NCBI GenBank assembly: GCA_048938385.1
Contig: JBHLMG010000010.1
Span: forward strand, 9,785-73,784
DNA from: Promethearchaeota archaeon
GTDB taxonomy: Archaea; Asgardarchaeota; Hermodarchaeia; Hermodarchaeales; Hermodarchaeaceae
DNA length: 64,000 bases
Direction: 5' to 3'
Shown here in pieces: positions 5,795-58,713 of this stretch. The notes beneath the pieces are model-generated. The model made no database searches. It was not told where the DNA came from and was given only the letters and a program-made list of their open reading frames with translations. Made by a program: the position numbers and the translations under genes. Each line of letters opens with the position of its first letter. Within the stretch, counting starts at the first letter, position 1.

Positions 5795-6721
5795 CTAAAG
5801 CTTCGGTAAAATTTCCTTTTGGATAAGTTCCAAATCCCGTTCAACAGTAGTGGGATTCACTAACCGAAGTGTCAAATGCGTCGCACCCATCTCAGCATAG
5901 GCTTTGAGCCGTTCAGCGCAATCCTCTGAAGAGCCCAGAATAACCCGAGAATCGTCAAGAGATTTACCCCATTTAGGAAGATGCTTCCGAGCATCCACAG
6001 CGTTCTTGCCATGCTGAAACAACATATTCGGAATCACTTCAAAGTCCTCCTGCGATCGATCGTTAAAGGCTAACAAATCCCACAGTTGATTAATCCGTGT
6101 TTGCAAGCCCTGTAGGGTTGGAGCAAAGGGCATCCAACCATTACCGTAGTAGGCCATTAGTTCTAAAATACCCCGTGAACCTCCGCCAAAGAAGAAGGGC
6201 GGATGTGGTTGTTGTACGGGTTTTGGTTCCAAGGAAACAGCGTTAAGCTGGTAGTAGATTCCTTGAAAGGACACCGTCTTTTCAGTCCATAACCGTTGAA
6301 TTACATGGACAGCCTCCTCGATTTGGGCAAGGCGTTCAGGATGCCGATGAAAGGGTACTTCTAGCCACTGAAACTCCTGACGGTACCACCCTGCACCCAC
6401 GCCCATAAGCAAACGACCCGAAGTCAACTGATCCACAGTTGCCGCCATTTTGGCGAGAAGAAAGGGATGCCGTAAGGGTAGAGGGGTTACGCTGGGTCCG
6501 ATTCGTACCGAGTGTGTCACCGTTCCTATAGCGGCGATGACCGTCCACGCCTCCTCCACCTTTGATCCTCTTGGAAGACTGAAATGATCATTGACCACCA
6601 CATGGTCAAATTCGGCTTTCTCAATGAGTTTCGCAGCGTGGATAGTTTGCGAAGGAGTGAAAAGTTCTAGGGGGAGATGAATACCCAGCTTCAAAGGGAT
6701 CTCAGCCTGGCAGTGTATCAA
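5795..6721 (-). CDS. LLM-class (luciferase-like) F420/flavin-dependent oxidoreductase
   Basis: 308 aa. Contains FDHVVVNDHF, GRLLMGVGAGW and TIM-barrel LLM-family hallmarks through to the C-terminal GATHLTLRL. Confidence 0.75.
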   Translation of the reverse strand: MIHCQAEIPLKLGIHLPLELFTPSQTIHAAKLIEKAEFDHVVVNDHFSLPRGSKVEEAWTVIAAIGTVTHSVRIGPSVTPLPLRHPFLLAKMAATVDQLTSGRLLMGVGAGWYRQEFQWLEVPFHRHPERLAQIEEAVHVIQRLWTEKTVSFQGIYYQLNAVSLEPKPVQQPHPPFFFGGGSRGILELMAYYGNGWMPFAPTLQGLQTRINQLWDLLAFNDRSQEDFEVIPNMLFQHGKNAVDARKHLPKWGKSLDDSRVILGSSEDCAERLKAYAEMGATHLTLRLVNPTTVERDLELIQKEILPKL

Positions 6722-49716: not shown

Positions 49717-50631
49717 TCAGAGCTTTTCAAGACACAGATGAACCAATTTCTTGTCTTTATCCTGAAGGGTTCCAAGGATTTTCCCTTGAGCCTGTGCAGT
49801 TCCCTTGCCTTTCTGAATTTCTAATTTCGCGCTTAACTTTTGCAGTTCTTGGAGAATCGTATCACGAATAGAGGTGACTTTTTTTGGAGGAGTTGGTTTC
49901 GGGGCTGCGATTTCAAAGGCAAAGCGTTCCACTAAATGGTTATGGAATGCCTGATAGGTTTTAGGATTATCGAAGACTTCCACAGCTTGAACTCTGCCTT
50001 CACTTATCACGGCTAATCCGACCTGTTGTTGTTGAGGAGTTATCTGTGCGATTTCGTCGCGAATAGCATCCATGGCTTTTCCTTGCACATGGCTAAGTCG
50101 AGAGGAAGTTTCAGAAGCATCGAGTAGTTGTTTCCCTTTGAGTTTACTCGTCTTCAGTTTCTCACGATATCCATGAACTTTACTCCAAACCCGATCTTGT
50201 CCAGCAACGCTTTGGGTGATAGATACCCCTCGTACTCCTGGAGCAGCTACACTATAGTGCTCGACATCGGTCATCAGGCATTGATATTCGCGGATGGGGT
50301 GGATATCATGAGTACAACGACAGGGTAATTCTATTTGGATTTTAGGAGGGACGAGGTGGCTCCCAATGATAATGCGTGATTGAGTGCCTTCAGCATGCAC
50401 ATCCATTCCAGCAATGAACAATACGGGAAGCTTCGCCCTGTTGAAGACTAAGACCGCGTTGATGTCACCAGAGTCGCGAAGGTCAAGAAGGCCCTTTTGC
50501 AAGGCTTCGTGAGCGGTGAGGTAGTCCCGTGGAACAGCCTGTGACGGGCACAAGATAGGGATGAAGTGCGCGTTTCCAATTTGGTGAGCACCTCCCAATT
50601 CGAGAGCGTCCAAGGCTTTTATTAGGTCCAT
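49717..50631 (-). CDS. hypothetical soluble protein
   Basis: 304 aa. Beta-rich N-terminal half with ELPCRCTHDIHP and a K-rich helical C-terminus. It faintly recalls DUF6569/ARPP-like proteins, but I cannot support that. Confidence 0.5.
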   Translation of the reverse strand: MDLIKALDALELGGAHQIGNAHFIPILCPSQAVPRDYLTAHEALQKGLLDLRDSGDINAVLVFNRAKLPVLFIAGMDVHAEGTQSRIIIGSHLVPPKIQIELPCRCTHDIHPIREYQCLMTDVEHYSVAAPGVRGVSITQSVAGQDRVWSKVHGYREKLKTSKLKGKQLLDASETSSRLSHVQGKAMDAIRDEIAQITPQQQQVGLAVISEGRVQAVEVFDNPKTYQAFHNHLVERFAFEIAAPKPTPPKKVTSIRDTILQELQKLSAKLEIQKGKGTAQAQGKILGTLQDKDKKLVHLCLEKL

Positions 50632-55176: not shown

Positions 55177-56769
55177 TTACTTGCGCTTCTTCATCCAGTT
55201 GTATACAAAGATGATGATAACCCCGATCGCGATAACCGCACCAGCAATGATGATCCATTCGGTTGGTATACCAGGCGGGGGGATTGTATAGACGACAGTT
55301 GCAACATTACTCCAGTTGGAGGTAGAGCCATTGATGAAGATTGCACGGGTACGGAAGTAATAGGTGCCTTCAACTTCTGCAGAGATATTCGCTGTATAAG
55401 CCTTGGTAGCAATGGTAGTGTTGATCAGGAGAGTAGCGAATGCAGCTGAACTGCTTCCTTGGAACTGGTACATAGCAATCTCGGTTTCATTGATCGTTGT
55501 TGTCCAGGTGAAAGGGATCAATCCTGTAGAGGTGGTGGTAGGTCCTGTTAGCGTTATGGAAGCCGGTGGGGCACCGAGGTATTCGCCAACTTCCCAGTCC
55601 CATTGGAAGACTTGGGCAAAGTAGTTGGCAACACCATTGTGGTGGATGATGACGCCAGCTTCACGGTTTTCTGAGACCGATTCGTTACTCCAGTTGATGC
55701 TGGATATTAACACGCGTTGACCATCGGCAATGACGCCTTTGTTATGGGTCCATCCGAAATAGGTTTGGTTGGTAAAAGCCACATGGACACCGTTGGCTTT
55801 GAGATCCTCCGCCACCAACTGCATTCCAGAACTCCTGTTATCTAACATCACACGGCAGTAGACGCCTCGTAACACGGCTGCTTTAATGGCATCATTGAAT
55901 TGGTTGGGATACCCGTCCCAATCAGCCTTGGAATACATTTGTTGGACATCTAAGGTTGTTGTCGCACTATCGATGAGGGCGACAATCGCAGGAATACAAT
56001 AGTCAGGAGATACAAGGGAGGTAATCGTCATGGACCCAGTGAAGGTTTGGGCGCTGAATGGTGCAGGATAAGGACCGGTGTAGTTGAGGTTAGAGAGGTG
56101 GTCATAATCGTTGATATCTTCGCTATATAGTGTGGCTGCAGCAACATCTGAAGTGAAGACATTGAGGAAGTATTGGACGACATCCGCATTTTGGATCGCG
56201 ACCCCCCATTCCCGATTGCCATCACTTGTCTCAGGGGGAATTCCTGATTTGGCCCAATTAGCGCTTTGCACCAACACCACCTGTCGGTCGATGATGATGT
56301 ATTTGGCATGAGTGAATCCAAGGTCGGTGCGAGATTTATAGGCAAAGACGGTCGCGCCATACCCTGGGAGCTGGGAGATATTGTAGAGCGCGGCGTGGGT
56401 CCAATGGTTTTCAGAAGCACTTGCCCATTTCCAAGAGACTATGACATGAATGATCATGCTGCCATTCCTTGCTTTCGCATCCGCCAGTTCGTGGAGTAGA
56501 TAGCCATGGCTAATAGCATACATGGTGATCAGAATTTCGTTCTGGGCTTGACGGAGATATTTCAAGGTCGTCACATAAGAGGAGTCTGGAGAGGTATACG
56601 CTTCGACGGTTGCTGACCCCGTGGTGGTATTCGCCACGAAGTGAGTCTGCGCTTGTGCAGTCAATGGAAAATTAGGAGCATCGTTGTTAGGAGCAATGGG
56701 TCGTATGAATAGAACCATGCCCAGAATCATGATAATAAAGGATAATTGAAGGAGATGTGAGCGTTTCAT
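55177..56769 (-). CDS. secreted phospholipase-D-family (dual HKD) protein with FN3/Ig-like stalk and C-terminal TM anchor
   Basis: Two HKD motifs, FTHAKYIIIDRQVVLVQSANW and WTHNKGVIADGQRVLISSINW. Signal peptide present. The C-terminus is WIIIAGAVIAIGVIIIFVYNWMKKRK. Confidence 0.85.
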   Translation of the reverse strand: MKRSHLLQLSFIIMILGMVLFIRPIAPNNDAPNFPLTAQAQTHFVANTTTGSATVEAYTSPDSSYVTTLKYLRQAQNEILITMYAISHGYLLHELADAKARNGSMIIHVIVSWKWASASENHWTHAALYNISQLPGYGATVFAYKSRTDLGFTHAKYIIIDRQVVLVQSANWAKSGIPPETSDGNREWGVAIQNADVVQYFLNVFTSDVAAATLYSEDINDYDHLSNLNYTGPYPAPFSAQTFTGSMTITSLVSPDYCIPAIVALIDSATTTLDVQQMYSKADWDGYPNQFNDAIKAAVLRGVYCRVMLDNRSSGMQLVAEDLKANGVHVAFTNQTYFGWTHNKGVIADGQRVLISSINWSNESVSENREAGVIIHHNGVANYFAQVFQWDWEVGEYLGAPPASITLTGPTTTSTGLIPFTWTTTINETEIAMYQFQGSSSAAFATLLINTTIATKAYTANISAEVEGTYYFRTRAIFINGSTSNWSNVATVVYTIPPPGIPTEWIIIAGAVIAIGVIIIFVYNWMKKRK

Positions 56770-57010: not shown

Positions 57011-57502
57011 GTGGTAACAGTGGGTAAAGAACTTCATTATGAATATGCGCAATATCCACCAGCTGAAACAGCGTTCAAATGTCTAGTTAATCGCTTGGAT
57101 TTGCAGGTAAGAGAAGAAGATATGGGTGGGGGATTGCGGGCGGTGAATGAGACACGAAGTTTAGTTGTTCATTTACAAACCCGCGCCACGCAGCGAGGGG
57201 GATTAAAAGTGGAAGTTCACATTCGGGTCTCAAGAGACGACGATATGGCGGCAGTGATGGCTTGTTTTGGTGAACCCCAGAAAGAACGCAAGATGGCCCC
57301 AACAGCCAAGGATTTCGCGAACCACGTGATAGCCTTAGAAGTTGGGGAGGATTCAGATGCCTTTGTTGCAGAAATTTGTGAACAGCTAGATATTACTGTG
57401 GATCAGTTTGGAAATTACCGCGCTATGGTTCTGTCCACTTCAACCCTTCCCGGTGCTTCTAAGGAGTTAAAACAAGCAGCGAAGAAGCTCAAAACCTTGT
57501 AG
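57011..57502 (+). CDS. hypothetical protein
   Basis: 163-aa ORF with GTG start. No family recognised. Confidence 0.45.
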   Translation: MVTVGKELHYEYAQYPPAETAFKCLVNRLDLQVREEDMGGGLRAVNETRSLVVHLQTRATQRGGLKVEVHIRVSRDDDMAAVMACFGEPQKERKMAPTAKDFANHVIALEVGEDSDAFVAEICEQLDITVDQFGNYRAMVLSTSTLPGASKELKQAAKKLKTL

Positions 57503-57524
57503 TCAACGCGAGGACGGAACGGGG

Positions 57525-57695
57525 TTACCCATAGGTGAGAGCATAAGATTCTGCTTTGTGACCACATTGTGGACAGACATACAAGTTTTTCTTCTTTTTG
57601 ACACACGCCATGTGAAAAGCCGCGTTGCATTGGGAGCATTTTAGGGGGGTTTTGACGATACTACCACAGGCTTGGCATACATCTTCAGAGCTCAT
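57525..57695 (-). CDS. 56-aa C4HC3 (PHD-like) zinc-finger protein, below ORF-track cutoff
   Basis: Hand translation of the minus strand gives MSSEDVCQACGSIVKTPLKCSQCNAAFHMACVKKKKNLYVCPQCGHKAESYALTYG*. Ligand spacing is C-x2-C-x9-C-x2-C-x4-H-x2-C-x9-C-x2-C. AAGGT lies 10 nt upstream of the ATG. Confidence 0.55.
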   Translation of the reverse strand: MSSEDVCQACGSIVKTPLKCSQCNAAFHMACVKKKKNLYVCPQCGHKAESYALTYG

Positions 57696-57786
57696 GATAT
57701 CACGGACCTTATTGGTAATACTCTACAAATTACCTGATTAAACATTTCTCTAGACCTGCTATTGACGCCGATTTGGTGTAGATACC

Positions 57787-58713
57787 TTAGCCTTCCCTTT
57801 CTTTGATGTAGGGGACTCCGATCGACTTTGGCGGAATGGATCGTCTAATGATGCCCAAGGCAACGATGACGCTGATATATGGGATCATCGCGATAAACTG
57901 TACATAAGGTGCAAGGTAGGAGAATTCGGGAAGCACATCAATTGATCCTTGGAGGGAGCTCAGGAAGCCAAAAAACAATCCTGATAAGACCACTCCAAGG
58001 GGATTCCAGTTCCCGAAGATAAGTGCTGCCAAGGCGATGAAGCCACGCCCACCTGTCATGAGTTCAACGAATCGGCTACCAAACCCGATAGATAGATGAG
58101 CCCCTCCAAGAGCTGCAAGGACGCCGCTGAGGAATACGCCAATAAGGCGTGTAGTTTGGACATTCACTCCTGCGGTATCAAGAGCACTAGGATCTTCACC
58201 TGCTGCTCTAAGGCGTAATCCAAACGGGGTTCGGTACAAGACATACCAACTGATGGGCAACATTAGGAACATGAGCACAATAAGTGGAGAGATTTTTCCT
58301 AACCAAGGCAGAGTCACTCTTGGCAATTGGGTGACGCTGGGAGTGATGCCGCGAATTCCCCAGATGCCATACACCATGAATGATGTAAATCCTGAGGCAA
58401 AAAGGATAATGCCAGCACCGCTGACAATTTGGTTGCCTCGTAATTGTACTGAGATTAGTCCATGAATAAGACCGAGAATACCTCCTGATACCATGGCACT
58501 TAACAAGCCTATCCAAGGATTGCCAGAAAACCAAGTTCCAACTACTGCCATGAAAGCGCCCATGAGCATCATACCCTCTAACCCGATATTAACGACACCA
58601 GATCGCTCTGAGAACATACCACCTAAAGCAGCAAGGACTAACGGTGTGGAGAATTGCAATGTAGTGTTAATGAACCAAATGATTACCAAAGGATTCAGGA
58701 AAGAGCTCTGCAT
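57787..58713 (-). CDS. ABC transporter permease (BMP/nucleoside-type, YufQ/NupQ-like)
   Basis: 308 aa, ~8 TM helices. Its start overlaps the upstream permease stop (TAATG, 1 nt). Confidence 0.85.
   Translation of the reverse strand: MQSSFLNPLVIIWFINTTLQFSTPLVLAALGGMFSERSGVVNIGLEGMMLMGAFMAVVGTWFSGNPWIGLLSAMVSGGILGLIHGLISVQLRGNQIVSGAGIILFASGFTSFMVYGIWGIRGITPSVTQLPRVTLPWLGKISPLIVLMFLMLPISWYVLYRTPFGLRLRAAGEDPSALDTAGVNVQTTRLIGVFLSGVLAALGGAHLSIGFGSRFVELMTGGRGFIALAALIFGNWNPLGVVLSGLFFGFLSSLQGSIDVLPEFSYLAPYVQFIAMIPYISVIVALGIIRRSIPPKSIGVPYIKEREG

Follow-up and report, generated by a model that had tools for sequence, protein, structure and literature searches.

A stand-alone, PHD-like C4HC3 zinc-finger micro-protein family found so far only in Hermod/Hod-type Asgard archaea

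A 64,000-nucleotide (nt) stretch of the archaeal contig JBHLMG010000010.1 (hereafter the window) encodes a 56-residue zinc-finger micro-protein which, judging from comparative sequence data, is the product of a genuine conserved gene under selection. We consider it somewhat probable that this is a real micro-protein folding as a single binuclear treble-clef (cross-brace) zinc finger of the PHD/RING type and serving as a binding module. The open reading frame (ORF) runs on the minus strand over positions 57525..57695 and comprises 56 codons, from the ATG at 57695-57693 to the TAA at 57527-57525; its translation is MSSEDVCQACGSIVKTPLKCSQCNAAFHMACVKKKKNLYVCPQCGHKAESYALTYG. The eight ligands of the window protein, C7, C10, C20, C23, H28, C31, C41 and C44, are spaced C-x2-C-x9-C-x2-C-x4-H-x2-C-x9-C-x2-C, with the aromatic residue Y39 two positions before C41 (ligand 7), and a regular-expression scan of six frames finds this eight-ligand motif once in the window, at 57564-57677. 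The ORF, its translation, the ligand spacing and the aromatic residue before ligand 7 had been put forward in an original prediction made from the letters of the window, and all were reproduced exactly from the sequence; the ORF list likewise confirms that the 74-amino acid (aa) ORF at 57415..57639 (minus strand) lies in another frame. The description of the 56-aa ORF as unannotated was wrong: GenBank holds an identical protein derived from a metagenome-assembled genome (MAG), 'hypothetical protein ACFE89_09995 [Candidatus Hodarchaeota archaeon]', and the 115.5-kb contig JBHLKQ010000009.1 has a gene call at the position of the ORF. The ORF was absent from the earlier list only because of a 60-aa cutoff. 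The features of the gene are as follows.

57525..57695, minus strand: coding sequence of the 56-aa zinc-finger micro-protein (ORF list, identical GenBank protein ACFE89_09995, orthologues, ratio of nonsynonymous to synonymous substitution (dN/dS))
57564..57677, minus strand: eight-ligand core C7...C44 (invariant in the 13-sequence alignment; in register with the PHF21A PHD finger)
57675-57677, 57666-57668, 57636-57638 and 57627-57629, minus strand: codons of C7, C10, C20 and C23
57612-57614, 57603-57605, 57573-57575 and 57564-57566, minus strand: codons of H28, C31, C41 and C44
57588..57599, minus strand: polybasic loop K33-K36, between ligands 6 and 7 and followed by Y39 (family alignment)

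Relatives of the protein were sought with an exhaustive HMMER search of 1.84 billion representative proteins followed by a profile search, with a scan of one genome per GTDB species and with a separate metagenome scan. A word-index homology search with the single protein retrieved nothing beyond the protein itself. Exhaustive HMMER recovered three true relatives of 58-71 aa (P0002, P0003 and P0006), to which the profile search added P0012 and P0013. Nine further loci came from the GTDB-species scan, in MAGs labelled Hermodarchaeota, Hermodarchaeum yapensis, 'Promethearchaeota' or uncultured archaeon, and nine more from the metagenome scan. Altogether there are more than 20 orthologues of 55-82 aa in Hermod/Hod-type Asgard MAGs and metagenomes, and as far as these sequences go the family is confined to this clade. 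The original prediction had suggested looking for orthologues in related MAGs, and those that turned up all stand alone: no domain fusion was found among the true members at genome or metagenome loci, the sole apparent fusion being P0013.

Eleven positions are invariant in the 13-sequence alignment (C7, C10, C20, C23, F27, H28, C31, K36, C41, C44 and H46), and all eight ligands are also kept in orthologues translated from other contigs, including the further metagenome members. K35 is nearly invariant, with KKKK, RKKK and KGKK as loop variants across the family; position -2 from ligand 7 is Y or F in all members and never Trp, and all members carry an acidic residue at most three positions upstream of C7. 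The C-terminal tail is conserved as H46-x-(S/A)-x-x-(Y/H/F)-x-(L/M)-(R/T/Q)-x-G, P0012 ending in T and L005 having an extra E. Loop 3 divides the family into two subgroups, one with 8-9 residues (9 in the window protein and 8 in the sequences closest to it) and one with 15. In six short-loop orthologues the synonymous sites are saturated, pN is 0.02-0.26 and dN/dS is 0.013-0.13 where computable; a pair differs at 21-37 third codon positions as against 1-17 first or second positions.

With its ligands invariant and its codons under strong purifying selection, the eight-ligand pattern lies far beyond chance. We take the gene to be genuine because of the orthologues, the invariant ligands, the low dN/dS, the conserved upstream block and the conserved gene order (the last two described below). 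That it is instead a chance ORF in the 3' region of an ATP-binding cassette (ABC) transporter operon, as its shortness (56 aa) might suggest, is refuted by the same observations and can practically be dismissed.

Three loci bear on the start codon: in L007, L008 and L010 (locus positions 6001, 6001 and 4101, respectively) a TTG stands at the position homologous to the ATG in the window, and this TTG is apparently the start codon, since the upstream frame is closed by stops within four codons. P0013 is an 88-aa protein in which the first ~45 family residues (to the last C-x2-C-G) are joined in frame to a complete rubredoxin. Its locus (L099 187-453; ENA scaffold_103258, 1053 nt) has a PAS-domain gene next to it and not conv163, the usual neighbour of the family, and P0013 may be a product of true recombination or a chimera created during assembly at the knuckle that both sequences share. 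Of the 80 loci from the genome scan, about 70 (L015-L085, bacterial) are spurious partial matches covering residues 18-54, with 46-54% identity over residues 19-46; two metagenome loci, L095 and L096, show the same kind of match. The genome-scan loci were rejected as family members on their partial coverage and by inference from these two, which in translation resemble acetyl-CoA carboxylase beta (AccD, N-terminal zinc ribbon); L097 and L098 translate as Mrp/ApbC-like ATPases with a 'YYVCPQCGH' motif. Matches of these kinds are a source of false positives for short Cys-rich queries.

The family resembles PHD fingers in ligand order, in register and, apart from loop 3 of the window subgroup, in spacing. 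PHD fingers follow the spacing consensus C-x2-C-x(8-21)-C-x(2-4)-C-x(4-5)-H-x2-C-x(12-46)-C-x2-C, and loop 1, loop 2 and the C4-H5 spacer of the window protein (9, 2 and 4) fall within its range. At E ≤ 0.01 the Pfam models C1_2 and C1_1 match 13 of the 13 members, PHD 12, zf-RING-like 11 and Prok-RING_1 five. The matches to PHD (PF00628) span the full model (1-47 of 47), and the L005 orthologue scores 26.2 bits against a gathering score of 24, with P0012 at 23.7, or 0.3 bits under it. C1_2 is above its cutoff in half of the eight orthologues that were rescanned, in a match that covers only model positions 15-48 of 48. When a 4-sequence profile is compared with the PDB, the PHF21A/BHC80 PHD finger comes first (E 1e-5, 28.4 bits), followed by many PHD and RING fingers; a 13-sequence profile agrees, PHD being first among the single-domain matches. 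The nominal top match of the latter profile, the designed C2H2 protein Aart, was discarded as an artefact in which five weak linker-repeat matches are summed. Aligned by hhalign, the 13-sequence alignment and the PHF21A PHD finger match with 88.2% probability and with all eight ligands in register.

Ten control sequences with the ligands fixed and all other residues shuffled never exceed 13.2 bits for PHD or C1_2, which leaves about 10 bits or more to be contributed by residues other than the ligands. Contributors include F-H-x2-C, the strand before C20, the aromatic residue before C41 and the acidic residues before C7 (ED-V-C in the family, ED-F-C in PHF21A), and at the level of sequence the PHD likeness goes beyond ligand spacing. 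The predicted PHD-like C4HC3 finger stands as regards ligand order, family profile and register, and as regards spacing outside loop 3; strict PHD membership is borderline (22.3 against 24 bits for the window protein). The expectation that its 9-residue loop 3 is shorter than in a typical PHD finger holds for the window subgroup, the other subgroup having 15 residues.

Set beside the PHD finger (PF00628; PHF21A/BHC80, PDB 2puy and 2yql), the family has the same C4HC3 order, with C-x2-C, C-x2-C, x4-H-x2-C and C-x2-C, and shares the hydrophobic residue before the His (F27, invariant), the aromatic residue at -2 from ligand 7 and the acidic residues before ligand 1; the BHC80 and UHRF1 PHD fingers also match its predicted fold. 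It differs in that the host is archaeal and the protein stands alone at 55-82 aa, whereas PHD fingers occur almost exclusively in eukaryotes and mostly as domains of larger proteins, in that loop 3 has 8-9 residues (window subgroup) or 15 (other subgroup) against the usual 12 or more, and in that Tyr or Phe replaces Trp; the invariant polybasic loop and the His after ligand 8 are the family's own. With C1/DC1 domains (PF00130, PF03107) the family has in common the core C-x2-C...C-x2-C-x4-H-x2-C, and C1_2 is the top Pfam match in all 13 members. The C1 consensus, however, is H-x12-C-x2-C-...-C-x2-C-x4-H-x2-C-x7-C, with an N-terminal His ligand and a single C-terminal Cys, whereas the family lacks a His upstream of C7 and has a C-terminal C-x2-C pair 8-15 residues after C31.

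The predicted structure points to the same class of folds. A single-sequence AlphaFold model was discarded as helical nonsense (predicted local distance difference test (pLDDT) score 57.9), and the AlphaFold2 (AF2) model used here was built from a 5-sequence alignment; its pLDDT is 78.7, and it is made up of three short beta-hairpins plus a turn at the C-terminus. Foldseek compares this model with the PDB, and the top 50 matches are all cross-brace domains (TM-score 0.45-0.54, probability up to 0.97): the EHMT2 Cys-rich region, RING1B, the RINGs of TRIM21/25/2/69/30/31, Nse1 and a U-box, together with the PHD fingers of BHC80, UHRF1 and ARID5. No zinc ribbon, rubredoxin or aS21 chain is among these 50, though such chains are present in the library. 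On this model the first metal site (Zn1) would consist of C7/C10/H28/C31 and the second (Zn2) of C20/C23/C41/C44, a pairing and stoichiometry that we infer from the model. The stretch that holds knuckles 2 and 4 (residues 19-46) can be aligned with the N-terminal ribbon of AccD, in which four cysteines share one zinc (E. coli AccD structure), and this fits pairs 2 and 4 sharing one metal, as weak independent support. The original prediction had proposed asking an AlphaFold model whether the ligand pairs interleave or sit in sequence, and the model matches interleaved, cross-brace domains only. The cross-brace is accordingly the best-supported reading of the topology and a fairly probable one, short of established because predictors are unreliable about metal sites and the pairing is drawn from fold matches.

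Several observations weigh against a PHD/RING-type cross-brace finger. The window protein lies under every Pfam and NCBIfam cutoff (C1_2 24.0 against 26 bits, PHD 22.3 against 24 and zf-RING-like 22.2 against 26.6, with many ribbon models also matching below cutoff), falling short of PHD by 1.7 bits, and one of the 13 members passes the Pfam PHD gathering score. No PHD protein appears at E ≤ 1e-3 in the HMMER search of 1.84 billion proteins, so that any relationship to PHD fingers is remote. Loop 3, at 8-9 residues in the window subgroup, is below the PHD range, within which the 15 residues of the long-loop subgroup do fall. The Foldseek E-values are weak (0.03-0.26), and the ligand pairing is a predicted one; AF2, RoseTTAFold2 and AF3 are known to draw tetrahedral sites in Haloferax CPxCG micro-proteins that bind no metal (PMC11241148). 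The genomic context offers no functional handle, because the convergent neighbour conv163 has no known relatives. Finally, hhalign matches the family to aS21 with 88.8% probability, equal to PHD; these scores do not separate the two, and in these alignments ligand register alone does, the third ligand pair being out of register with aS21.

This last point leads to the reading in which the family is a divergent member or functional analogue of DUF1610/HVO_2753, that is, of aS21, a basic zinc protein binding 30S rRNA or other RNA. aS21 is known as a ribosomal zinc micro-protein widespread among archaea (PMC7005279, PMC12605026). Its length is about 56-65 aa, its four knuckles are similarly spaced and its composition is basic; the window protein is likewise small and basic, with a KKKK patch. 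The best single-sequence PDB match is M. acetivorans aS21 (9o17_AZ, 56 aa, E 0.0046), ahead of bL32m and the PHF21A PHD finger, with a common C-terminal 'N-x-Y-x-C-P-x-C-G' knuckle, and S. solfataricus 9fhl_C and HVO_2753 (6ydh) are also among the PDB matches. Once the family profile is used, however, PHD fingers rise while aS21-type chains fall to E 0.03-0.1 with the 4-sequence profile and to 0.012-0.1 over both family profiles, and no DUF1610 protein is found at E ≤ 1e-3 among the 1.84 billion proteins. The scores of the window protein for the aS21-family NCBIfam models are far under their cutoffs (HVO_2753, NF041909, 13.2 against 80 bits; PRK14890, NF011481, 17.7 against 61 bits). aS21 has four CxxC pairs (C4C4), whereas the third pair of the zinc-finger family is an invariant H-x2-C after an invariant F; the family occurs in a single Asgard clade, in contrast to the wide archaeal distribution of aS21; and aS21 chains are missing from the Foldseek top 50. 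We regard an aS21-type protein as unlikely, though it is the main rival. We hold a second reading to be similarly unlikely, in which two sequential, independent knuckle pairs (C7/C10/C20/C23 and H28/C31/C41/C44) form a double zinc ribbon, the PHD pattern being convergent and the protein a generic binder of nucleic acid or protein. Such an arrangement is permitted by the 9-residue spacers and suggested by sub-threshold matches to DZR (PF12773; 19.5 against 27.3 bits in the window protein, with 7 of 13 members matching at E ≤ 0.01), to Zn_ribbon_8 and to rubredoxin-like and other ribbon models; P0013, whether natural or chimeric, joins the last knuckle to a rubredoxin knuckle, and the AF2 topology is a prediction only (PMC11241148). 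The invariant four-residue spacing from C23 to H28 and the F-H-x2-C motif are nevertheless hallmarks of PHD/C1 cross-braces, the full-length matches in register are to PHD and Nse1 RING-like models and not to ribbons, the AF2 model matches cross-brace domains only, and the resemblance of residues 19-46 to the single-zinc AccD ribbon pairs knuckle 2 with knuckle 4.

Within the cross-brace class, a minimal RING-type E3 ligase of the kind of the archaeal small RING finger protein (srfp), recruiting the E2 of an Asgard ubiquitin system, would account for the RING E3 domains that dominate the Foldseek matches and for the zf-RING-like (11/13) and Prok-RING_1 (5/13) matches. Like srfp and Prok-RING_1 proteins, the family is a small stand-alone archaeal finger with a predicted binuclear cross-brace, and stand-alone archaeal srfp E3s are active in vitro (PMC5654768). 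Yet srfp is a RING-H2 (C3H2C3) protein encoded in an operon with ubiquitin, E1 and E2 genes (Caldiarchaeum/Asgard; PMC5654768), whereas the family has the ligand order C4HC3 with PHD spacing, neither C3HC4 nor C3H2C3, and genes for ubiquitin, E1 or E2 are absent both from the ±10 kb around the window gene and from the orthologous loci. The residue before C10, a hydrophobic E2 contact in RINGs (PMC5654768), is A, V or K, and C44 is followed by G, K or E and then by the invariant H46, with no Arg/Lys linchpin. Since ligand order, E2-contact residue, linchpin and ubiquitin-gene neighbourhood all fail, a RING-type E3 role is very unlikely.

If the PHD/RING-type cross-brace finger is correct, the gene would give rise to an independently transcribed 56-aa micro-protein, of a family that is always stand-alone (55-82 aa), in which pairs 1 and 3 (C7, C10, H28 and C31) would hold one Zn2+ and pairs 2 and 4 (C20, C23, C41 and C44) a second. 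F27 and Y39 would pack a small hydrophobic core, like the corresponding hydrophobic and aromatic residues in PHD fingers. A PHD-like edge for docking peptides may be formed by the beta-strand that precedes C20 and the acidic residues immediately N-terminal to C7, and the polybasic loop K33-K36 may contact a negatively charged partner, be it nucleic acid, an acidic protein surface or an acidic lipid; the protein is basic overall. With neither a catalytic domain nor a fusion partner, a binding module is more plausible than an enzyme, and our best estimate is a small module that combines a PHD-like docking edge with an electrostatic anchor. No known prokaryotes are closer to eukaryotes than the Asgard archaea, some of which have histones with lysine-rich tails. 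A more specific proposal is that the family is a pre-eukaryotic or independently evolved PHD-type reader, docking lysine-rich N-terminal tails (e.g. of tailed Asgard histones) or another unmodified N-terminal peptide with the beta1 edge and the acidic residues that precede C7 as the docking surface, in the manner of BHC80-type PHD fingers; this we consider a long shot.

The surroundings of the gene are conserved both upstream and downstream, with the following features.

57733..57751, minus strand: upstream block AGAGAAA[T/C]GTTTAATCA[G/T]G (six orthologous loci aligned)
57699..57703, minus strand: Shine-Dalgarno-like GTGAT, 4-8 nt upstream of the start (GTGA kept in six short-loop orthologues)
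57011..57502, plus strand: conv163, convergent neighbour of about 160-163 aa (tblastn synteny, alignment of orthologues)
55177..56769, minus strand: PLD-like membrane-anchored protein with 2 x PLDc_2 (Pfam PLDc_2 7.1e-39)

A 91-nt spacer separates the zinc-finger ATG from an ABC permease gene (57787-58713). The upstream block in this spacer is nearly unchanged in six orthologous loci despite the saturation of synonymous sites in the coding sequence, and it can be read as a B recognition element (BRE) with a TATA-like box (TTTAAT, 57737-57742) ending 42 nt before the ATG. GTGA(T) is a putative Shine-Dalgarno remnant, by its match to the anti-Shine-Dalgarno sequence of 16S rRNA. None of the three conditions on which the original prediction was to be given up applies: the protein has orthologues, its model matches cross-brace domains, and putative promoter and Shine-Dalgarno-like elements are kept upstream. 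The conserved gene order comprises a Bmp-type ABC ATPase, two permeases, the zinc-finger gene, the convergent conv163 and a PLD-like gene. In the more distant long-loop group the upstream ABC genes are replaced (by a 198-aa ORF in L013), and the triad of zinc finger, conv163 and PLD persists. conv163 adjoins the zinc-finger gene in every locus with enough flank, 22 nt from the zinc-finger stop, and the PLD-like gene follows conv163 in loci L003-L011, L013 and L014, which span the family's whole range. The conserved order may be collinearity within one clade only.

In the conv163 family (160-173 aa; orthologues e.g. at L006 6194-6685 and L013 1452-1934) 26 positions are invariant, including a YRAM motif and, at the C-terminus, K-x-AA-x-KL-x-x-L. 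Since no relative of conv163 was found in Pfam, NCBIfam or the PDB, it was dropped as a functional clue to the zinc finger. The PLD-like protein (55177-56769, minus strand) has an N-terminal hydrophobic segment and a C-terminal transmembrane helix with a short KKRK tail, and given this layout its catalytic part is probably extracellular. On the other side of the zinc-finger gene (window about 57787-67700; L001 1-9909, contig JBHLKQ010000009.1 38034-47942), two paralogous Bmp-type (nucleoside-like) ABC transporter clusters lie divergently around a phosphoribosyltransferase gene. Besides its Bmp binding protein, each cluster encodes BPD_transp_2 permeases and a double ABC ATPase, and the two ATPases share 36% identity. 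A 304-aa gene ~7 kb away (L001 17065-17979; window about 49717-50631, minus strand) carries the precomputed annotation PF20208 (ARPP-1).

PHD fingers, like related chromatin readers, are regarded as having arisen in eukaryotes. Both binuclear treble-clef fingers in prokaryotes and small RING proteins in archaea are already known, as indicated by Pfam Prok-RING_1 and by passages in PMC5654768 and PMC4506424 (citing Burroughs et al. 2011), so that an archaeal cross-brace finger is not categorically new. PHD-type readers have been described as 'virtually absent from prokaryotes' (Grau-Bove et al., bioRxiv 10.1101/2021.11.30.470311). Our literature searches on this topic turned up no account of a PHD-like family from Asgard archaea, and it is as a minimal, stand-alone, clade-restricted C4HC3 finger that the present family is new. 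That the family is so narrowly distributed speaks against a simple descent of eukaryotic PHDs from it; it may have arisen by lineage-specific invention, by convergence from ribbon-type micro-proteins or by old horizontal transfer.

The family is an addition to the poorly charted archaeal zinc-finger micro-proteome, in which genes such as ACFE89_09995 are hidden by 60-aa ORF cutoffs. Should it prove to be convergent or an aS21-like RNA binder, the interest would be modest, but a clearly delimited family, conserved in its putative promoter and gene neighbourhood, would remain. A 56-residue peptide is also a cheap and directly testable candidate for asking whether cross-brace reader-like modules exist outside eukaryotes. 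If the protein did turn out to be a reader of N-terminal tails, it would contradict a purely eukaryotic origin of the modules that read histone marks and tails.

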